Shown here one piece after another: positions 3,640-25,930 of a stretch of 26,717 bases of DNA; the first letter of the stretch is position 1, and every line of letters starts with the position of its first letter. Both the position numbers and the translations under genes were made by a program. The stretch lies in the IMG/VR virus record IMGVR_UViG_3300017774_005035, positions 1 through 26,717 of that record; one strand, given 5' to 3'. The notes below the pieces were generated by a model. It searched no databases and was not told the origin of the DNA. It saw only the letters and a program-made list of their open reading frames with translations. Origin of the DNA: a virus (lineage: Duplodnaviria > Caudoviricetes).

Positions 3640-3680
3640 TTTGGTCAAATTTGGCCAAATTTTGGTCAAAAATGGCCAAA
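3640..3680. repeat. Four tandem near-palindromes TTTGG(T/C)CAAA with 10-11 bp period
   Basis: tttggtcaaa 3640, tttggccaaa 3650, tttggtcaaa 3661, aatggccaaa 3671. Confidence 0.85.
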
Positions 3681-3713
3681 ACTATAAAATTTAAGACTTA
3701 AAAATTGACTAAA

Positions 3714-4211
3714 ATGGGATACGAAAAAACCATAAAATTAGAACATGATGAGGTAGCTGCTAAGATAAATTTAGCATCTGGAGAGATAATTACTTTAGAG
3801 GATAAAGTCAAAAAGTTTAAGCAAGGGTATGAAAGAGTAAACGGTAATACAGTTAAATGGAGTAGATCTTATAATAAAGCCTGGGCATTGCTTGCTGAAT
3901 TAACAAATGACAGAGAGTTTAAAGTGGCCCATAAGCTTGCTACCAGAGCAAATTACAGAGATAACAGTCTATGTCCATTAGATGATGATATGAGTTGTAC
4001 TGAGCTAGGAGAAGAGCTAGGAGTAAATAGAAAAGAGGTAGATAAGATTATAAATAAGCTATTTAGACTAGGTGTAATAGGTAAATGGGAAGTTTATCAA
4101 GCACATGAAGTACATAAAAAGTATTGGGTATTTAATCCTTACCTATCTTTTAACGGTAATTGTGAGGAAACAGGTATGAGAAGTTTATTTAAAGACACTT
4201 ATTTTGCTTAA
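3714..4211 (+). CDS. RepL-like winged-HTH replication/maintenance protein
   Basis: HTH-like MSCTELGEELGVNRKEVDKIINKLFRLGVI followed by YWVFNPYLSFNG (YxxNPxxxxxG-type motif of RepL-like proteins); ATG 3714 preferred to TTG 3705. Confidence 0.65.
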   Translation: MGYEKTIKLEHDEVAAKINLASGEIITLEDKVKKFKQGYERVNGNTVKWSRSYNKAWALLAELTNDREFKVAHKLATRANYRDNSLCPLDDDMSCTELGEELGVNRKEVDKIINKLFRLGVIGKWEVYQAHEVHKKYWVFNPYLSFNGNCEETGMRSLFKDTYFA

Positions 4212-4216
4212 AGTAT

Positions 4217-4666
4217 ATGAAATACAAAATAAAAATAAAAGAGGACTTTAAAGATTTAGAAGATATACACAAATATCAAAGGTACTTAGCACATTCTAAT
4301 CCCAAATTAGTACAAAAAGCAAAAGAAAACTCTAAAGCGTTATCTGACAACCTAACTTTACCAGAAAAGTACATAAAACAATTATTATACGAAATCGGTT
4401 TAGAATACGAATTTCAAAAGATAGTGTACTTTCCTTCAGGAGATTTCTGTATATTAGACTTTTATATACCTACTTTACATCTAATAATAGAATTAGATGG
4501 ATTACAGCATTATAATGTAATAGGGGAAATAAAAGATTTGCACAGAAATCAGAAACTTTGTAAAGTTGGATTTGACAGGGAAGTAAGAATCCCTAATAGT
4601 AAAGCAATTCTACTAAATACAGAAAGTATCAATAATGTTCTAGTACCATTCTACGATAAACCTTAA
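4217..4666 (+). CDS. DUF559 / Vsr-like PD-(D/E)xK endonuclease
   Basis: Motifs TLPEK..., FQK, ILDFYIP, IIELDGLQH, D..RNQKL...G....RIPN. Confidence 0.8.
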   Translation: MKYKIKIKEDFKDLEDIHKYQRYLAHSNPKLVQKAKENSKALSDNLTLPEKYIKQLLYEIGLEYEFQKIVYFPSGDFCILDFYIPTLHLIIELDGLQHYNVIGEIKDLHRNQKLCKVGFDREVRIPNSKAILLNTESINNVLVPFYDKP

Positions 4667-5396: not shown

Positions 5397-5413
5397 TGGC
5401 GAAAAATAAGTTG

Positions 5414-5421
5414 TATATTTG
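5414..5421 (+). promoter_or_regulatory. -7 promoter box TATATTTG for the exonuclease operon
   Basis: TAnnTTTG match in the intergenic region. Confidence 0.6.
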
Positions 5422-5455
5422 TATCGTAGTTAAGGCAGTTAGCTTTAATCACATA

Positions 5456-5463
5456 CAAATATA
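5456..5463 (-). promoter_or_regulatory. -7 promoter box TATATTTG for ORFs 5396-4663
   Basis: Plus strand caaatata is TATATTTG on the minus strand. Confidence 0.6.
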
Positions 5464-5533
5464 GGTTTTCTTTTTAGTATAACCAACTGAATATTGATAT
5501 TAAAAAACCTAAATATTACCAACAAACAGATAA

Positions 5534-6274: not shown

Positions 6275-6298
6275 TTTAATTTTTAATCAACAAACACA

Positions 6299-6466
6299 AT
6301 GAATACACTTATTAAATTCTTAAACTCAAAACCAAGTTACCTAAAATCTAGTACAACTATGATAGCTGCCAAAGCTGGAGTAGCTGAAAGCACTGTTATT
6401 AGATTTAAAAAGTCTAGTCAATTTAAGACTATGCGAACTATGTATGTAAACTCTTTGGTAAAATAA
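6299..6466 (+). CDS. Small HTH protein, 55 aa (MNTLIKFLNSKPSYLKSSTTMIAAKAGVAESTVIRFKKSSQFKTMRTMYVNSLVK), absent from the ORF track
   Basis: Translated by hand; fills the gap exactly, TAATG overlap with next gene; TTMIAAKAGVAESTVIRF is a classic HTH signature. Confidence 0.75.
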   Translation: MNTLIKFLNSKPSYLKSSTTMIAAKAGVAESTVIRFKKSSQFKTMRTMYVNSLVK

Positions 6467-8119: not shown

Positions 8120-8127
8120 TATATTTG
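8120..8127 (+). promoter_or_regulatory. -7 promoter box TATATTTG ahead of the packaging operon
   Basis: TAnnTTTG match with TTG elements about 17-25 nt upstream. Confidence 0.65.
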
Positions 8128-8200
8128 TATTGTAAACCAGATCCTATTTCCCCACTATTAATAATAGATTTAGAGATCTCGTAAGAACAAATAATTAGAA

Positions 8201-8232
8201 AGAGTGGGAGAGCAATCTCCCCTTTTTCTTTT
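8201..8232 (+). terminator. Intrinsic terminator-like hairpin in the leader of the packaging operon
   Basis: GGGAGA-GCAA-TCTCCC followed by CTTTTTCTTTT. Confidence 0.7.
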
Positions 8233-8245
8233 AACCAACAGGCAA

Positions 8246-8653
8246 ATGTATAAAACAATAAATATCAAAGTAGATGATGAATCTATTCATCTTTACTATC
8301 TAACAGTAATAAATTCTTTAATAGGAAGTAATAGTGAAAGTGGCTTTAAGCCAGATCCACTAACTACTAAAGAGTTAGAATTATATTCAGAAATATTAAA
8401 GATAAACCAAAAATTTATATCTTTGTCTCCAGAAGCTAGAGCAGAATACATTCATTCTAATACAGTTAGAAAATCAATTAGAACAAAACTTGATACTTCT
8501 GTAGCAAATTATAATAATGTATTGTCTAGACTATCTTCTAAAATAACATTAACTGGTCAAAAATTATATAATTTAGGAGCAGTACCAAAAGACTTTGAAA
8601 ACATACACAACTATGAAGGTATCCAGTACAGATTATTCAGAGAAAAAGTATAA
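8246..8653 (+). CDS. Helical, probably DNA-binding protein upstream of the HU/IHF-like gene
   Basis: ATG 8246 after leader box preferred to GTG 8204, which lies inside the hairpin; HTH-like VRKSIRTKLDTSVANYNNVLSRL. Confidence 0.7.
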   Translation: MYKTINIKVDDESIHLYYLTVINSLIGSNSESGFKPDPLTTKELELYSEILKINQKFISLSPEARAEYIHSNTVRKSIRTKLDTSVANYNNVLSRLSSKITLTGQKLYNLGAVPKDFENIHNYEGIQYRLFREKV

Positions 8654-9135: not shown

Positions 9136-9650
9136 TATTAGATTTTAATCAAAACTTTTGGAAAGCAAATCCATCTACTGAGGCAATAGAGTTCTTCTAT
9201 AAGCTTAAAAATGCAGATGAGAGTAAAGACAAACAAGAGACCTCTAAATTAATGTGGGCCTGTGCTCTTTGCTTGCATCCTAAATCTTTGATATATCCAA
9301 TACCTAGTAAATGGGAAGATGTAAAAAAGACAGTATTAAAAAATGAAAAGTTTAACTGGAATAGTAAAGAAAACAAAGAAATAGTAGAAAAATTTACTGA
9401 CTTATGTTTATCAGTACCAGAAAAAAGTTATCATTTTTGGTGTGAGTATATGGTAAAAAGAGAAGATTATTGCAATAGTATAAATTTTAAAACAGCGGAT
9501 TTAAAAGAAATAGATATGGTAGAAAAAATGAGATCTGGAACTCCTAAAGCTTTCCAAGAACTTGCCATTATCAAAGGACTCCTTAGAGATGAGGATAGTA
9601 AGAAAAAGAAACCTAAACCAACTTCTTCTTCAGATGAAGGGAGGTTATAA
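9132..9650 (+). CDS. Putative terminase small subunit (crAss-type)
   Basis: Helical 172-aa protein two genes upstream of TerL with basic C-terminal tail; call rests on synteny. Confidence 0.45.
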   Translation: MILDFNQNFWKANPSTEAIEFFYKLKNADESKDKQETSKLMWACALCLHPKSLIYPIPSKWEDVKKTVLKNEKFNWNSKENKEIVEKFTDLCLSVPEKSYHFWCEYMVKREDYCNSINFKTADLKEIDMVEKMRSGTPKAFQELAIIKGLLRDEDSKKKKPKPTSSSDEGRL

Positions 9651-9661
9651 TCAACAAACAA

Positions 9662-14831: not shown

Positions 14832-14839
14832 TATATTTG
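14832..14839 (+). promoter_or_regulatory. -7 promoter box TATATTTG for the capsid operon
   Basis: TAnnTTTG match 33 nt upstream of ATG 14873. Confidence 0.65.
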
Positions 14840-14872
14840 TATTTGAAACTAACAACAAACACAATTTTAGTT

Positions 14873-15937
14873 ATGTCAATAGATTATTCTAAATTTCAAA
14901 TTGAAGAAGCTCCTGATTATTCAGCATTATTAAATAGTGCAACTAATCCAGAAACACCTGGAGAAGATGTAGATAATGATGGTGAGGGTAGTTCAGAAGA
15001 AGAGGATGCGGATGATGATACTTCTGTAGATCCTACTATTTATAAATCAGTATTAAACACTTTTGTTACTAGAGAAGGTATTGAATTGCCCGAAGACTTG
15101 GAAATTAAAAGTGCAATTGAGTTTGAAGAAAAACTTGAAGAACTAGTTATAAATAATAGGATAAAAAAGAAAGAAGAGGAAAGATATGCAAATGCTTCTC
15201 CAGAAGTAAAACTATTTTTAGATATTAGAGAGCATTTTGACAATGATACAAAAGCAATTTCTTTTGCTAGAACTAAATCTGCATTAGAAGGGTTTACCGA
15301 TGAACAGTTAGATGATGAAGAATTGCAAAAAACAATTTATTTAGATTATTTAACTAGTATAAAAAACATGACTCAAGAAGAAGCTGAAGAAGAAATTGAA
15401 GAAGCGGAAACTTTGGGAAAATTAAAAGACAAAGCTAGTACAGCAAAAGATAAGATAGTAAGCCATTTAGATCACCAAATAGATCAATTTAAAGCTATTA
15501 AAGCTAATAAAGAGAGAGACGAAGTAGCTAATACTACTAAGAAATTTGAATCCCTTATTGATGGCTTTAAATCAATTGAATCAGCAGGTGAATTAAAAAT
15601 AACAGATGAGCTAAAAAATAAGATGAAAGAAAATCTTACTAAAGTAGTTCATGTTGAAGGTAAAAAATCTTTTAATGATTTTTCCTTAAAGCAACACAAA
15701 TATTCAGACGAAATTACAATAGCAATAGAGTATTTTAATACTTTAGGACTATTTAATGTAGATAACAAAACTGGAAAATGGCATCCTGATTTTTCAAAAT
15801 TAAGTAAGTTATCTGCGAAAAATATAAAAAGCAAACTAGATGAAGTCATAGTTGATGCCCAAAGAACAGGGAAGGTAGGAGTTTCTGAACCTTTGAACAA
15901 CAAAGATCGTATAAAGAATCTAGGTTATAATGTTTAA
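14873..15937 (+). CDS. Acidic helical scaffold-like protein between portal and MCP
   Basis: D/E-rich N-terminus, coiled coils, position; ATG 14873 preferred to TTG 14825, which lies upstream of the promoter box. Confidence 0.7.
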   Translation: MSIDYSKFQIEEAPDYSALLNSATNPETPGEDVDNDGEGSSEEEDADDDTSVDPTIYKSVLNTFVTREGIELPEDLEIKSAIEFEEKLEELVINNRIKKKEEERYANASPEVKLFLDIREHFDNDTKAISFARTKSALEGFTDEQLDDEELQKTIYLDYLTSIKNMTQEEAEEEIEEAETLGKLKDKASTAKDKIVSHLDHQIDQFKAIKANKERDEVANTTKKFESLIDGFKSIESAGELKITDELKNKMKENLTKVVHVEGKKSFNDFSLKQHKYSDEITIAIEYFNTLGLFNVDNKTGKWHPDFSKLSKLSAKNIKSKLDEVIVDAQRTGKVGVSEPLNNKDRIKNLGYNV

Positions 15938-15961: not shown

Positions 15962-17494
15962 ATGAGTAAATTTCTCAACGGGTTGCAGGTGTATGAGCCT
16001 AAAACCTTTAAAGGCGCTTACGCCCAAGAAGACACACTCAACTCCATGATGATGCTAGATCCAAAGGGTATTAACTACACTTTGAATAAAGTATATGCAA
16101 ATAACCCTGCAATGGAGTTGATTAATTTTGTAGAAAGCTTTCCTACCATGACAGTAAATGGTGAGAATGACATGTTTTACTATAAAGTAAAGGGAAAAGA
16201 TTCCAATACTTTAGTATTAACTGATGTTGAAACTGAAGCAGGTGCAAGCTTACAAGCTGGTACTTTGACAGTTCCAATTAGTTCACAGGAATATTTTTAT
16301 GTAAGATTTGAAAAGCCATTAGCTTCACAAACTCAAATCCTTCGTAATCCTTCAACTAATTACCAATTCCATGTAATTAGTGAGCAAAAAGATGCTACTG
16401 GTACTAAATACCAAGTAGTTGCTAATACAGAGCCAGGTCAGAGTTTTAATATCCCACTTGATGAACTTCAATTAAAAGGTCGTTGGGTAGTTATTGGCGG
16501 TACTGCTGCTGATCACTGGTCTGATAAAGGTATGGAGCTTGGTCACTTTGCTACCAACTATGAAATGGCTTTCCGTATTTCTAAAATGCGAATGCAATAT
16601 GCAGTTTCTGGTGCAATGATTGAACAAGGTAAAAATTATCCTTTGCGTGTACCTTTTGCACTTACTAACTTGAAAACTGGTAAACCAGAAGAAGTTCAAG
16701 CTTATGTAAACGCACTTGAAATAGCTGCAATGATGGAGTTTAAATACATCAAAGCTAAATCTGAATTGTTCTCTAAGAAAAACTGGGATGTAAATAACAG
16801 AGTATCTTTCTTAGATGCAAATGGTCAAAAATGCCCTACACCTTATGGTTTGTTTGAGCAAGTAGTTAACTATAACAAATTGAAGTACAATACTTTTGAT
16901 TTGGATTACTTGACAGACGTAATTTTGACTAGAATGATTAATAAGCGTTCTAGAAACAACAGAAAAGTAAAATTGGTAACTAGTGAATTTGGTGCTATCC
17001 AATTCCACAAAGCAGTAGATGCTAAAGTAGGTACTTCTAATGTAACAATTATGAATGACCTTTATTTGAAGTCAGCTTCAGCCTCTAATACAGGTGCAAG
17101 TAATCCTACTGGTTTTGGTTATCAGCATACTACATATAGATCTGTAAATGGTATTGATTTTGAAGTAGTTATCGCAGATTGGTTGAGCGACCGTGAGTTG
17201 TTCCCACAACCTCACCCTAATGGTGGTCTTGGTAATGCAGAAGGTTATACTTACTACATTATGTCTGGTGATATGGGTTCTGAATCAGGTATCTATAAAC
17301 TTCGCCCAAATACTACTTCATTGCCTTCTATGGGTTATATTGCTGGTATGAGAGACCCATTCTCCGCAGGTGGTAAGGACAAAGCAAAAGTAATGTCTTC
17401 TCCTATTGATGGATACGAAGTGCATTACATGGATGTAGCTGGTCTTGCAATGCTTGACCCAGATGCACTTATTGAATTGAAATTAGCTGTATAA
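15962..17494 (+). CDS. Major capsid protein (crAss-type, HK97-like fold expected)
   Basis: 510 aa, position after scaffold, highly expressed codon style (CGT, TTC, AAC), GLFEQ, TSEFGAIQFH, GMRDPFS and DGYEVH motifs, strong downstream hairpin. Confidence 0.85.
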   Translation: MSKFLNGLQVYEPKTFKGAYAQEDTLNSMMMLDPKGINYTLNKVYANNPAMELINFVESFPTMTVNGENDMFYYKVKGKDSNTLVLTDVETEAGASLQAGTLTVPISSQEYFYVRFEKPLASQTQILRNPSTNYQFHVISEQKDATGTKYQVVANTEPGQSFNIPLDELQLKGRWVVIGGTAADHWSDKGMELGHFATNYEMAFRISKMRMQYAVSGAMIEQGKNYPLRVPFALTNLKTGKPEEVQAYVNALEIAAMMEFKYIKAKSELFSKKNWDVNNRVSFLDANGQKCPTPYGLFEQVVNYNKLKYNTFDLDYLTDVILTRMINKRSRNNRKVKLVTSEFGAIQFHKAVDAKVGTSNVTIMNDLYLKSASASNTGASNPTGFGYQHTTYRSVNGIDFEVVIADWLSDRELFPQPHPNGGLGNAEGYTYYIMSGDMGSESGIYKLRPNTTSLPSMGYIAGMRDPFSAGGKDKAKVMSSPIDGYEVHYMDVAGLAMLDPDALIELKLAV

Positions 17495-17505
17495 GCTTAA
17501 AATAT

Positions 17506-17549
17506 GTAAAGAGGAGTGGAAATATTAATTTATTTCCCTCCTTATTTAC
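17506..17549 (+). terminator. Hairpin / partial terminator after MCP
   Basis: GTAAAGAGGAG-T-GGAAATA-TTAATT-TATTTCC-CTCCTTATTTAC. Confidence 0.65.
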
Positions 17550-17582
17550 TGATAAAATAACCAACAAACAAATAGAATTATT

Positions 17583-18482
17583 ATGATGAATCATCCTTAT
17601 TTAGAAGATAAAATTATCAAAGTAAAACCTGCTCCAAGCAAGGGTCACTGGGGTAAATTTGTAAGTCCTGACCAAGCTGGTAGTTTGGCTACAGCAGCCC
17701 CTTTTCATCCAGGAACTGTTAGAACTTACGTAGTACCTCCAAGAGCAGTTTATTCTTTTGTAGACGATGTTACTCCAAATCCTTGTCCAGATTTTAATGG
17801 AAAAGAAATGACAGAAAAAGCATACTTTGAAGCTAAACTTGGAATCAATCTTAATCCATACGATCATAACAATTGTATGATTAAAGAGTATAATACAAAT
17901 ACTGGTAAGTTAGAAGTAACTTACGTTCAAGTAGAAGATGAACTTATTTTGGATTTAAAAAATCCAATTGATAAAATCAAGTACAAAGTACTTTGTCAAT
18001 ATCCTTCTGAAATAGCTAGATCTAAAGCTGTTTATGATCAAGAAAGAAGACTTGGACTTTTGTATGTTATGGTTGATGATAGCCCTGTAGATGAGGCTAA
18101 AATTGAAGCAGTAGATTTAAAAACTAAGGCTTACATGAGATTCTCAGAAATTACTCAAGATAAAGAGTCTATTTTGAAGTTTTTAAATGTAGCTGGTAAA
18201 GTTTATGATCATAAAACTGATTTAGGTATTCTAAAAATTAAAGTAGTAGAGTACTTAGAATCTGATCCTGCTAAATTTATAGAACTTGCAAATGATAAAG
18301 ATGCAGATCTTAAATGGGTAATTAACCTAGCAAGAAAGAAAAATATATTAGATTACGATAGTACTTCTAAGTTGTATAAAACTAAGAATGGTGCTGCATT
18401 AAAATATGATGAATTGGTTGGATATTTTAAAAATATTAAAAACCAAAAAGAAAGACAAGAATTAATTGACTCTGTTGCCTAA
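17583..18482 (+). CDS. Conserved crAss head-module protein following MCP
   Basis: 299 aa; LDLKNPIDKIKYKVL motif and synteny (MCP+1). Confidence 0.65.
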   Translation: MMNHPYLEDKIIKVKPAPSKGHWGKFVSPDQAGSLATAAPFHPGTVRTYVVPPRAVYSFVDDVTPNPCPDFNGKEMTEKAYFEAKLGINLNPYDHNNCMIKEYNTNTGKLEVTYVQVEDELILDLKNPIDKIKYKVLCQYPSEIARSKAVYDQERRLGLLYVMVDDSPVDEAKIEAVDLKTKAYMRFSEITQDKESILKFLNVAGKVYDHKTDLGILKIKVVEYLESDPAKFIELANDKDADLKWVINLARKKNILDYDSTSKLYKTKNGAALKYDELVGYFKNIKNQKERQELIDSVA

Positions 18483-19189
18483 TGACTGCTAACGAAATGG
18501 CTGATAAAACTGAGCTTCTTTTAAATTTAAAAGATGCAGAATTTGCTTATGAAGATATAGAATTATCATCTGTATTAAATAAAGCACAAGTCATGTACGT
18601 TAATCAGTTTATAGACAATAGACTAAATTATAAACAAGAAGGTTTTGAAGAAACTGAAATAAGGGGATGGGGATTAGCACCACTAATACAACCATCCACT
18701 TTATCTCAGTCTGGTTCTCAAGCTAATATTTTTCCAAACGGTAAGTATTATGATCTTCCTGCTGATTTTTGGGTAATGATTACTGAAACTCCTACTTCAG
18801 ATAAAAATTACTGCAATTCTAATGTTAAAATAATACCTAGAGTATCTATTGTTACACATGATGAATACAATAAATTAATCAGGAATCATTATAGAAAGCC
18901 CTACATTAATCAATACGATGGTTTAGTATGGAGAATGTATGACAGTAATAGAAGGGTACAGTTAATTACTAATGGTGCTTTTAATATTACCTCTTACAAA
19001 ATCAAATACTTAAAATCAATCCCTGATATAGTAGTTAACAGATCTTCTCCTGGAAGCCAAGTTAATTGTATATTAGAAAGTACTACTAAGGAAGTACATG
19101 AGGCTATTGTAGAAATTGCTGTTAGAATTATTAGAAAGAGTAATTCAGAACCAAATATTCCTGATTTAGGAATAGAACAATTAAATTAA
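18482..19189 (+). CDS. Tail ring / head-tail connector protein (crAss-type)
   Basis: MTANEM...ELSSVLNKAQ...GFEETE.R...L..L, YKIKYLK..P, C.L....HEAIVEIAV; synteny. Confidence 0.7.
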   Translation: MTANEMADKTELLLNLKDAEFAYEDIELSSVLNKAQVMYVNQFIDNRLNYKQEGFEETEIRGWGLAPLIQPSTLSQSGSQANIFPNGKYYDLPADFWVMITETPTSDKNYCNSNVKIIPRVSIVTHDEYNKLIRNHYRKPYINQYDGLVWRMYDSNRRVQLITNGAFNITSYKIKYLKSIPDIVVNRSSPGSQVNCILESTTKEVHEAIVEIAVRIIRKSNSEPNIPDLGIEQLN

Positions 19190-19208: not shown

Positions 19209-20480
19209 ATGAGTTTTAACAGTTCAATGTATTCACGTAAAATGGGTTTTGCTTCTTTTGTAATACCTGCTTCAAACGTGGCTAGTTTGCCAGCTGCTGG
19301 TGCAGTGGTAACAAATATTAATTTACCTAGAGGTGCTGCTGTTTTAGTAGACAAAGCAGGTAAAAGACTTGCTGCAATGCCAACTACTGGTGTAGCTAAG
19401 TTTGCTTACTCACACGGTTCTACTAAGCCTCTTATTTTTACTCAACTTTTTGATGTAACTAAATTGGTTTTAACTAAGCAAAAATTTATTTCAGATGCTG
19501 AACAAGTAACTACACTTGGTTATCAGGGTTCTGGTAGTGCTAACTTGCCAGTAATCAATAGCTCTAACTTTGGAATTTACATTCGTCAAGAGCAAGATGA
19601 TTATGTATACGGTGGAAATGCTTCTATGGCAATTCACATGCAAGGTCAATTTAATACCTCTGCTTCTTCTTCTGCTAGAGAATTTGCTCTTAGAGCTGCT
19701 GATGCTATTTTTGAATCAGTGAATAACTGGGTATCTGAAACTAGTAATTCTAAGCCTTCTTATGCACGTATTAAAGTTATTACTGATGGTACTGTAGGTG
19801 CTGCTATTGCAGGTGGTGCTATTGTTTCCAATGGTTCTAAAACTATTGTAATGAACACAGGTGTAGGTACTATTGTTGCTGGTGACACCATCAGCATTGG
19901 TTCTACTACTGATGCTTATTCTGTGGTATCTGTAAGTGGTTTGACAATTACTCTTGGTGAAAAATTTAGAGGACCAAATGCAGCTGCTGAGACAGTTAAT
20001 GAAATTACTACTGTAGGTGGTTTGTATGGTATTCAGTTTACTGGTATTAACAATGAATTTGACCCATACTTGTTCTCTAATTATAGCAAAAACTCTTTCA
20101 GTGTAATTATCCAAAAGGAAGGTGTACCAGTTGTAATTACAAATAGTACTACACAACCTAAATTTGGTGTAGGTACTTATGAAACTGTAGTAATGGAAGA
20201 AAAAGCATTTATGGAAAATAACACAGATGCTACTTTGACTACATTTATCCCAAATAAGCCTGTAGAACTTTTAGCAGATCCTACTAAAAATTATTCTATC
20301 TTGGATATTAAATGGACAGATCAAGTAGATGCTGATACTCCACTAGGTACTTTAGGTAGAACATTTGGTAATGTTAGATTTATGCTTGAGTTGACAGGAG
20401 CTTCAGTAGCAGCTTCAACTGTTGGTGATGCTTTGGCCGAGACTGTATTAGGTACAGCTTACGCTACTGGCGATCTTTAA
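19209..20480 (+). CDS. Auxiliary (decoration) capsid protein-like structural protein
   Basis: 423 aa, A/G/S/T-rich, highly expressed codon style, follows ring protein, ends at a strong terminator; call by synteny with crAss-like phages. Confidence 0.55.
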   Translation: MSFNSSMYSRKMGFASFVIPASNVASLPAAGAVVTNINLPRGAAVLVDKAGKRLAAMPTTGVAKFAYSHGSTKPLIFTQLFDVTKLVLTKQKFISDAEQVTTLGYQGSGSANLPVINSSNFGIYIRQEQDDYVYGGNASMAIHMQGQFNTSASSSAREFALRAADAIFESVNNWVSETSNSKPSYARIKVITDGTVGAAIAGGAIVSNGSKTIVMNTGVGTIVAGDTISIGSTTDAYSVVSVSGLTITLGEKFRGPNAAAETVNEITTVGGLYGIQFTGINNEFDPYLFSNYSKNSFSVIIQKEGVPVVITNSTTQPKFGVGTYETVVMEEKAFMENNTDATLTTFIPNKPVELLADPTKNYSILDIKWTDQVDADTPLGTLGRTFGNVRFMLELTGASVAASTVGDALAETVLGTAYATGDL

Positions 20481-20485
20481 TTTAT

Positions 20486-20536
20486 AAGAGCCTTGGGGAG
20501 TGCTGTTTGTTGGTTACTCCCCTTGGTTTCTTTTTT
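20486..20536 (+). terminator. Intrinsic terminator with a large GU-rich loop
   Basis: GAGCC-TT-GGGGAGT-[GCTGTTTGTTGGTT]-ACTCCCC-TT-GGTTTC followed by TTTTTT. Confidence 0.85.
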
Positions 20537-25909: not shown

Positions 25910-25930
25910 ATTAATTTTATAACTAACAAC

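Follow-up and report, generated by a model that had tools for sequence, protein, structure and literature searches.

CpxQ, SroC, and DapZ are base-pairing sRNAs derived from mRNA 3′ untranslated regions (UTRs), which occur as separate RNA species requiring both Hfq and RNase E; GcvB is also Hfq dependent, and P1 c4 and P4 CI are further examples of phage antisense RNAs. To our knowledge, the Bacteroidota lack Hfq. Here we describe a predicted terminator hairpin that closes the capsid operon of an uncultured crAss-like phage, represented by a fragment of 26.7 kb and 30% GC (the whole stretch of DNA analyzed, hereafter the window), and that bears an antisense seed for boxes at the starts of selected phage genes. 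As with CpxQ, SroC, and DapZ, the regulator would have its terminator in common with an mRNA and reach other starts in trans, but a discrete RNA form of it is putative and its main targets lie within the parent operon.

In Staphylococcus aureus, initiation on the icaR mRNA is blocked when a short motif in its 3′ end pairs with its own initiation region, and the choice between action in cis and in trans was left open there as well (PMC3868564). The phage element similarly places complements of initiation regions at the 3′ end of the same, predicted, transcription unit. The icaR case concerns a single gene whose long UTR bears an anti-Shine-Dalgarno (anti-SD) motif, with formation of a 40-nt RNase III duplex (PMC3868564). 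In the phage, by contrast, the operon is polycistronic and 5.7 kb long, the seed measures 8 to 16 nt and lies within or next to the terminator hairpin, the several targets are non-SD, and the seed has turned over in sequence. Neither the anti-SD motif (UCCCC) nor a long RNase III substrate is present, the predicted helices being 8 to 16 bp long, and a TTCTCC segment in the flank of clade B hairpins (clades A to E are described below) is SD-complement-like and secondary. GcvB is likewise a multi-target regulator, which silences translation by pairing with ACA elements in leaders (PMC3879156) that resemble the clade A boxes, but it is a stand-alone host sRNA, whereas here no dedicated promoter is evident and the boxes of clades B to D are not ACA repeats. 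In Bacillus subtilis, long-range folding brings distal 8-nt complements onto ribosome binding sites (RBSs), repressing translation and promoting decay (PMC12697547), and we group the hbs 5′/3′ interaction (PMC5737220) with this likeness; the short helices predicted here are plausible because 8-nt distal complements are repressive in that system. The B. subtilis complements are, however, selected against and act over hundreds of bases (PMC12697547), whereas those of the phage appear to be selected for and lie 2.9 to 5.7 kb from their targets.

Phage RNAs that control phage genes by pairing include lambda OOP and aQ and P22 sas, but these have their own promoters and act in lysogeny, immunity, or exclusion (PMC12197685). 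Unlike OOP, which is encoded on the opposite strand with full complementarity, the element lies on the same strand as its targets and kilobases away from them. In the excerpted text of PMC12197685 the words "capsid" and "crass" do not occur and no morphogenesis-operon terminator is among the phage RNAs, and the excerpts of a second phage RNA review (PMC10884466) contain nothing similar. In Escherichia coli, the effects of a terminator loop on fepA probably do not involve pairing (PMC11979758). We found no description of such an element in crassviruses in a largely open-access full-text collection, and nothing relevant there on P22 scaffold autoregulation. Rfam 15 gave no matches at or above the gathering threshold in the window or in seven relatives spanning clades A to E (the best weak score is 17 bits against a cutoff of 81), and no Rfam family fits the element, which motif catalogues outside Rfam might still contain. 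As proposed, the element works like icaR, GcvB, and the distal anti-RBS 8-mers but is a member of none of these kinds, because its seed is not anti-SD, it has no match in Rfam, and a discrete sRNA form of it is putative.

The capsid operon and its 3′ hairpin

The window codes for terminase, portal, major capsid (Crass_capsid, PF23898), and ring (PF25710) proteins, and the conserved order of these genes places the phage in the Crassvirales. Its capsid protein is 21 to 28% identical to those of the named phages listed and forms a branch of its own in a quick capsid tree. We infer a Bacteroidota host from TAnnTTTG motifs and SD-poor leaders. The gene order 14873 - capsid - 17583 - ring - 19209 parallels gp31-gp32-gp33-gp34/35-gp36 of crAss001. 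The first gene (14873..15937, + strand) is a homolog of crAss001 gp31 (hhalign, 99.2%) and likely codes for the capsid scaffold, as suggested by its position and its acidic, helical model; it is followed by the major capsid protein gene (15962..17494, +) and a homolog of gp33 (17583..18482, +; 99.8%). Structure models of the gp31-like and gp33-like proteins have no match among solved structures. The start of the tail ring protein gene (18482..19189, +) overlaps the gp33-like stop, and in 22 of 24 phages it lies within −4 to +9 nt of that stop, an arrangement suggesting that the two genes are translationally coupled. The last gene ahead of the hairpin (19209..20480, +) likely codes for an auxiliary capsid protein of the gp36 family (profile-profile 96.8%, E 2e-10), a homology visible only with deeper profiles, shallow comparison giving nothing. 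For crAss001, a 1:1 ratio of gp36 to capsid protein and dodecameric ring proteins are described; gp31, gp33, and a scaffold are nowhere named in the main text of that paper, as excerpted (PMC10172136).

The gene at the gp31 position of Azobacteroides phage ProJPt-Bp1 (L131:5829-6983) is annotated as a VIP2 toxin-family protein, which, judged by position, may be a misannotation. In one contig (G005:C1:5236-5614) the gp31-like frame looks broken after 36 codons, possibly by an assembly error, and four loci of clades C and E (L054, L059, L063, and L082) have an extra small ORF or a long gap between the post-capsid hairpin and the gp33-like gene.

The motif TATATTTG at 14832..14839 (+), which resembles a Bacteroidota-type −7 promoter, puts the box at 14853 at the predicted 5′ end of the operon mRNA; TAnnWTTG lies at most 60 nt from the gp31-like ATG in 21 of 24 phages. 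A hairpin between the capsid and gp33-like genes (17506..17549, +), present at this place in 23 of 24, may be a partial terminator or a stabilizer. The operon is a unit predicted from promoter motif and terminator, with read-through of the 17506 hairpin assumed.

The predicted intrinsic terminator that closes the operon (20486..20536, +) has a GC stem formed by 20495-20501 and 20516-20522 together with an outer stem; a U tract is also present, and the fold is of −24.9 kcal/mol (z −4.1, 0 of 200 shuffles). A GC-rich stem with a U tract behind it, on the strand that is transcribed, defines such terminators and is seen here; a consensus terminator scan missed the hairpin because the scan permits loops of at most 8 nt. 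The antisense seed, GCTGTTTGTTGGTT (20502..20515, +), spans a 5-nt open loop and a weak wobble upper stem: by prediction only UUUGU (20506-20510) is fully open, with GCUG and UGGU pairing on either side, and a 12-bp helix on this loop therefore requires the upper stem to melt. The hairpin is near-identical in the loci L002 and L027, at 48% protein identity. A promoter-like motif occurs in the last 300 nt before the element in only 6 of the 28 phages compared below, at unrelated positions, and since no conserved promoter precedes it the element is most simply the 3′ end of the operon itself. Among contigs assembled from an RNA run, one ends at 20472 and none spans the hairpin, which says nothing either way.

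The initial annotation had placed a 12-mer, TGTTTGTTGGTT, in the terminator loop at 20504-20515 and complementary boxes before a series of start codons, and all of these coordinates hold. The 9-mer CAACAAACA occurs five times on the + strand, each time 1 to 12 nt ahead of an ATG, and its sole − strand copy lies in the loop; with wobble variants, six of seven sites are at starts and the seventh is the loop. The six boxed genes take ranks 1 to 6 among 36 starts for predicted pairing with the hairpin (−13.1 to −5.4 kcal/mol, from a purpose-made ungapped, accessibility-corrected model). The strongest predicted site in the window is that of the exonuclease gene (5518..5529, +; rank 1, −13.1), followed by a box matching at 13 of 13 positions in the gp33-like leader, right after the post-capsid hairpin (17558..17570, +; rank 2, −10.9), and by one with two G-U pairs at the first gene of the HU/terminase/portal block (8233..8244, +; rank 3, −9.2). 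The others precede a 55-aa ORF at 6299-6466 (6285..6296, +; rank 4), the gp31-like gene, just 3′ of its promoter-like motif (14853..14861, +; rank 5 of 36, −6.1), and a gene upstream of the large terminase (9649..9660, +; rank 6, −5.4). A partial box at a 63-aa ORF (25920..25930, +; rank 8, −3.1) is a weak and doubtful target, and the starts of the major capsid (0 kcal/mol) and auxiliary capsid (−0.2 kcal/mol) genes are not targets.

These sites differ in their conservation, and the "phage-wide" control suggested by the initial annotation is overstated. The conserved core is of two or three genes, namely the gp31-like and gp33-like genes and often the ortholog of the gene at 8246..8653 (+), which is a partly conserved target (6 of 9 clade contigs score −5 or lower). 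The exonuclease box at 5518 is patchy among relatives, being at or below −10 in 3 of 7 clade contigs, as is the 6285 box, which is absent from the L027 ortholog; the same-position gene in L027 as that behind the 9649 box is also boxed (G010 13845, −6.2), by a comparison of position alone. Seeds are conserved within clades, and further candidate targets lie in other predicted same-strand units. The 8233 box is immediately preceded by a hairpin and U tract (8197..8232, +), with a promoter-like motif at 8120-8127.

The boxed genes at 6299-6466 (by eye) and 8246-8653 resemble those for small helix-turn-helix proteins, and the element may therefore feed back on transcription regulators; the label of the 8246 product, a putative helix-turn-helix protein and a lead only, comes from automatic cluster names without a common Pfam family. 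Elsewhere in the window, two TATATTTG promoter-like motifs on opposite strands (5414 + and 5463 −, within 5410-5470) sit in an inverted repeat between divergent gene blocks. At 3645-4666, inserted among − strand genes, short TTGGCCAAA-like repeats sit immediately before a + strand ORF of 168 aa that belongs to no known family, and a DUF559/HNH-like nuclease comes next; this could be an origin with its initiator or a mobile unit.

Judged within the window, the pattern stands out from chance only modestly, and it is the relatives that decide. With up to two mismatches, the 12-mer has 10 matches against a chance mean of 5.1, a number reached in 2 of 100 shuffles. Shuffling the 14-nt loop gives an equal or better top-six pairing sum in 2 of 400 cases, and the window-alone P value is therefore about 0.007. 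The seed (20502..20515) is the best of 67 non-coding loci for pairing with the gp31-like and gp33-like starts together.

Covariation of seeds and boxes among relatives

Single-protein scans of viral contigs returned no relatives, and alignment-based scans returned 86 loci besides the window's own record (L001, dropped). From these, 27 non-redundant loci were hand-picked, each covering one target start or more as well as the last operon gene's 3′ end; together with the window they make 28 carriers of five sequence types (2 of type A, 20 of B, 3 of C, 2 of D, and 1 of E), with L052 and seven named phages as outgroups. Because 20 of the 28 representatives are of clade B, independent sequence replacements number only about four. 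In a quick capsid-protein tree of 33 rows, clades A to E form one branch with support of 99, apart from phi14:2, crAss001, L052, Fpv3, and four Suoliviridae, and each of A, B, C, and D forms a single supported branch. The capsid proteins of the carrier lineages are only about 30 to 55% alike.

Directly 3′ of the auxiliary-capsid stop, each type has a seed unrelated to the others, with its complement present at the gp31-like and gp33-like starts. In clade A, the loop elements GTTGGT and GCTGTTT face CCAAC and AACAGC boxes, with GCTGTTT(TT)GTTGGT set against CCAACAAA and AACAGCA, and a 2-nt loop insertion in L027 is mirrored in its own leader. The clade B loop TTGCTGTC faces GACAGCAA, the clade C linker GCTCTAGCTCTTTTGTTTA, between two hairpins, faces TAGAGC, AAAGAGC, and AAACAAAAGA, and the clade D loop TCTGCCA faces the start ATGGCAG itself. 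We also note that the hairpin 5′ flank in five clade B loci (L006, L015, L065, L073, and L077) has a second, pyrimidine-rich complementary segment, in which TAATTCTC, TTTTTCTCC, and TTTTTCTCTCG match and covary with GAGAATTA, GGAGAAAAA, or GAGAGAAAAA in the gp33-like leader; in L077 this segment entirely substitutes for the loop site.

Cross-matching of clades supports pairing of the starts with their own elements. The own element beats every foreign-clade element at 22 of 24 gp31-like and 23 of 28 gp33-like starts, and among 120 permutations the true pairing of clades scores best, with capsid and auxiliary starts scoring near 0. Mean own-element energies at gp31-like and gp33-like starts, respectively, are −8.0 and −10.2 for clade A, −9.9 and −11.1 for B, −5.2 and −7.1 for C, −11.2 and −9.7 for D, and −5.2 and −5.3 for E, and 0 and 0 for the outgroups. 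Ranked across whole contigs, these two starts come 1 and 2 of 30 in G010, 2 and 1 of 93 in G001, 1 and 4 of 93 in G002, 3 and 2 of 91 in G003 (scored with the element of a near-identical relative), 2 and 4 of 104 in G007, 16 and 3 of 79 in G006, and 9 and 3 of 44 in G009; the gp33-like start of G005 is 2 of 72, and in outgroup G008 the ranks are 4 and 44 of 80, with weak energies. In a reciprocal scan of non-coding DNA on both strands, run without G005 since its gp31-like frame is apparently broken, the 3′ locus heads the ranking in 6 of 8 carrier contigs and comes second and third in the others, against 189 of 287 in G008.

With bulges allowed, the gp31-like, gp33-like, and 8246-ortholog starts of clade C rank 1, 2, and 3 of 44 and 5, 1, and 3 of 79, although this gapped model was picked after seeing the data. 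Chance pairing sums in the outgroup scans reach down to about −18, and clade C (−13.6 and −9.8) therefore relies on the ranks and this post hoc model; its 7-mer cores are too common to inform (6 of 113 and 4 of 51 at starts). Pairing in clade E, a single phage, is not significant (P = 0.36 and 0.12), and L016 has no gp33-like site.

A hairpin pattern scan, selecting on the loop, yielded 119 new loci, of which 40 follow an auxiliary-capsid gene, as do 2 more missed by the profile. Another 40 of the 119, examined by eye, were chance matches lacking the hairpin context, and in the remaining 37 the flanks are too short to judge. Among the 40 linked loci, a set that overlaps the earlier contigs in part, GACAGC is present at 20 of 21 gp31-like and 28 of 30 gp33-like starts and at none of 26 capsid and 29 auxiliary starts; a wobble variant or the 5′ flank provides the pairing in the three exceptions.

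The boxes could in principle be mere A/C-rich translation enhancers with a fortuitous complement in the loop, in keeping with the enhancement of translation by ACA motifs (PMC3879156) and with the modest significance in the window, but this is scarcely credible and largely refuted by the four unrelated boxes, each matching the 3′ element of its own clade only. We found no relative that keeps the box while losing the loop: both are replaced together, and both are absent in the outgroups. The initial proposal that the capsid operon's 3′ end pairs with initiation regions as RNA thus finds strong support in cross-clade covariation, and as loop and tags vary in concert among distant relatives, the hairpin very probably base-pairs with the boxed starts.

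Concerted change of all copies, and hence covariation, would also be seen if the boxes were protein-binding sites on RNA or DNA, with the inverted copy serving as a minus-strand decoy RNA or a second DNA site, and the phage does code for putative helix-turn-helix proteins. The initial annotation had regarded wobble-preserving substitutions as independent evidence for RNA pairing, but this argument is weak because the box contains only A and C, so that any transition is G-U compatible; flanks across clades have 10 G-U versus 18 A-C combinations (94 flank positions at 47 sites), which do not discriminate. A protein site is nonetheless highly improbable, given that G-U pairs, the U tract, and the fold energy all favor the + strand. 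The + strand fold is the more stable in 20 of 28 elements, with 48 versus 27 G-U pairs, and a U-rich tail is present in 24 of 28, the elements of clades D and E having no clear U tract. In 25 clade B hairpins, 99.1% of cells are paired, with many G-U, and compensatory changes are seen in 6 of 8 unconstrained stem pairs, the 5 outer pairs being fixed by the search pattern. Also against a protein site, clade C matches require bulges, different targets use different sub-segments of one element (L027 and L077), and the clade D "box" is the start codon with the first codons.

Codon use suggests that a box at a start has a cost. The Met-Thr-Ala start of the clade B ring gene uses ACA, which would create a box, in none of 47 distinct sequences (which are related to one another), compared with 43 of 95 Thr-Ala pairs at internal positions and, in other clades, 6 of 9 ring starts; 5 of the 47 use ACG, which can still pair by wobble. 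Sites on the opposite strand, which would be reached strictly in trans, are few (e.g., G001 11686 and G010 2616) and not conserved among orthologs, and 3 of the 6 in clade B are plain Met-Thr-Ala starts.

The seven named crassviruses have no pairing at the 3′ position after the capsid operon, and whole-genome scans of non-coding DNA in phi14:2, crAss001, and Fpv3 gave no convincing same-strand hairpin partner. As a separate observation and the one lead in a cultured phage, phi14:2 has a 14-nt complement, with two wobbles, of its gp33-like start at L274:1441-1454 (+, non-coding), scoring within the chance range; its gp31-like leader and gp33-like start have GGAACTGA in common, and the surrounding region (1280-1620) is non-coding and may be structured. 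Our overall verdict is that the carriers share what appears to be a real, conserved, covarying RNA element, whose function we infer below.

Predicted mode of action

The anatomy of the element, its choice of targets, and the joint replacement of seed and boxes across clades are read from the sequences, and we consider them best explained, with fair but by no means full confidence, by a hairpin acting as a base-pairing translational repressor of selected phage genes. Transcription of the operon to its end would expose a stable 3′ hairpin, either as the mRNA end or as a decay-resistant fragment, which would pair over 8 to 16 nt with the gp31-like and gp33-like starts and block 30S loading. The coupled ring gene would fall along with the gp33-like gene, while the major and auxiliary capsid proteins, coded by the same operon, would remain fully translated. 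The outcome would be a setting of high-copy versus low-copy output and a late feedback, with boxes in upstream units (5518, 6285, 8233, and 9649) hit in trans as the RNA accumulates. Action on the operon genes could be in cis or in trans, and on units behind predicted terminators it would be in trans.

The conserved targets are the first gene of the operon and the first gene after the internal hairpin, and never the two high-copy shell genes. Initiation in Bacteroidia requires unstructured upstream adenines (PMC13000457), and because this region must be open and adenine rich, pairing should occlude initiation. The sites span −24 to about +18, and the AUG is covered in clade D and in L076, which makes repression likelier than assistance; if the pairing is real, it is probably repressive. 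The initial annotation had offered both late repression and a 3′-to-5′ bridge that aids initiation, and it is the former that we favor, there being no fixed spacing and no sites at the high-copy genes.

Pairing that is real but positive, as a bridge that stabilizes the mRNA, opens the leader, or recycles ribosomes, would fit the covariation equally well. The conserved boxes mark predicted 5′ ends or closely follow hairpins, positions at which looping of the RNA could protect it from decay, and the hosts are inferred to lack SD pairing (PMC7797042). We nonetheless regard such a bridge as unlikely, as the spacing varies from −24 to about +18 with the AUG covered in clade D, the genes of highest demand are without sites, and the leaders are already unstructured.

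Alternatively, the pairing might act on the 3′ element itself, with an untranslated upstream box capturing the nascent loop and altering termination or processing, and so how far transcription continues into the tail genes beyond 20562. In clade A the seed takes in part of the upper stem, and in clades A and B it is in the terminator loop; the boxes lie upstream on the same predicted transcript. Such control is very unlikely, however, in that clade C carries its seed in a linker beyond the terminator stem, the strong GC stem would stay intact, and the extra boxes in other units are unaccounted for.

Returning to translational repression, it is quite possible, although we would put this forward only tentatively, that a deep lytic clade of crassviruses uses the terminator of its capsid mRNA as a protein-free controller of a regulon, setting stoichiometry within the operon, shutting off scaffold, packaging-block, and regulator genes late and in trans, and having had its code rewritten at least four times. 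It is poorly understood how phages of the Bacteroidota, whose hosts do not use SD pairing, make capsid subunits by the hundred but scaffold, ring, and accessory proteins in small numbers when all come from one operon, and a terminator doubling as a multi-target antisense regulator would, if true, be a new answer to this stoichiometry question. It would also be a rare natural instance of long-range 3′-to-start pairing under positive selection. The four seed-box codes provide ready-made specificity controls and, if indeed rewritten, would be natural orthogonal seed-box pairs. Control from the capsid-mRNA terminator would then be a phage translational strategy in hosts that do without Shine-Dalgarno pairing.
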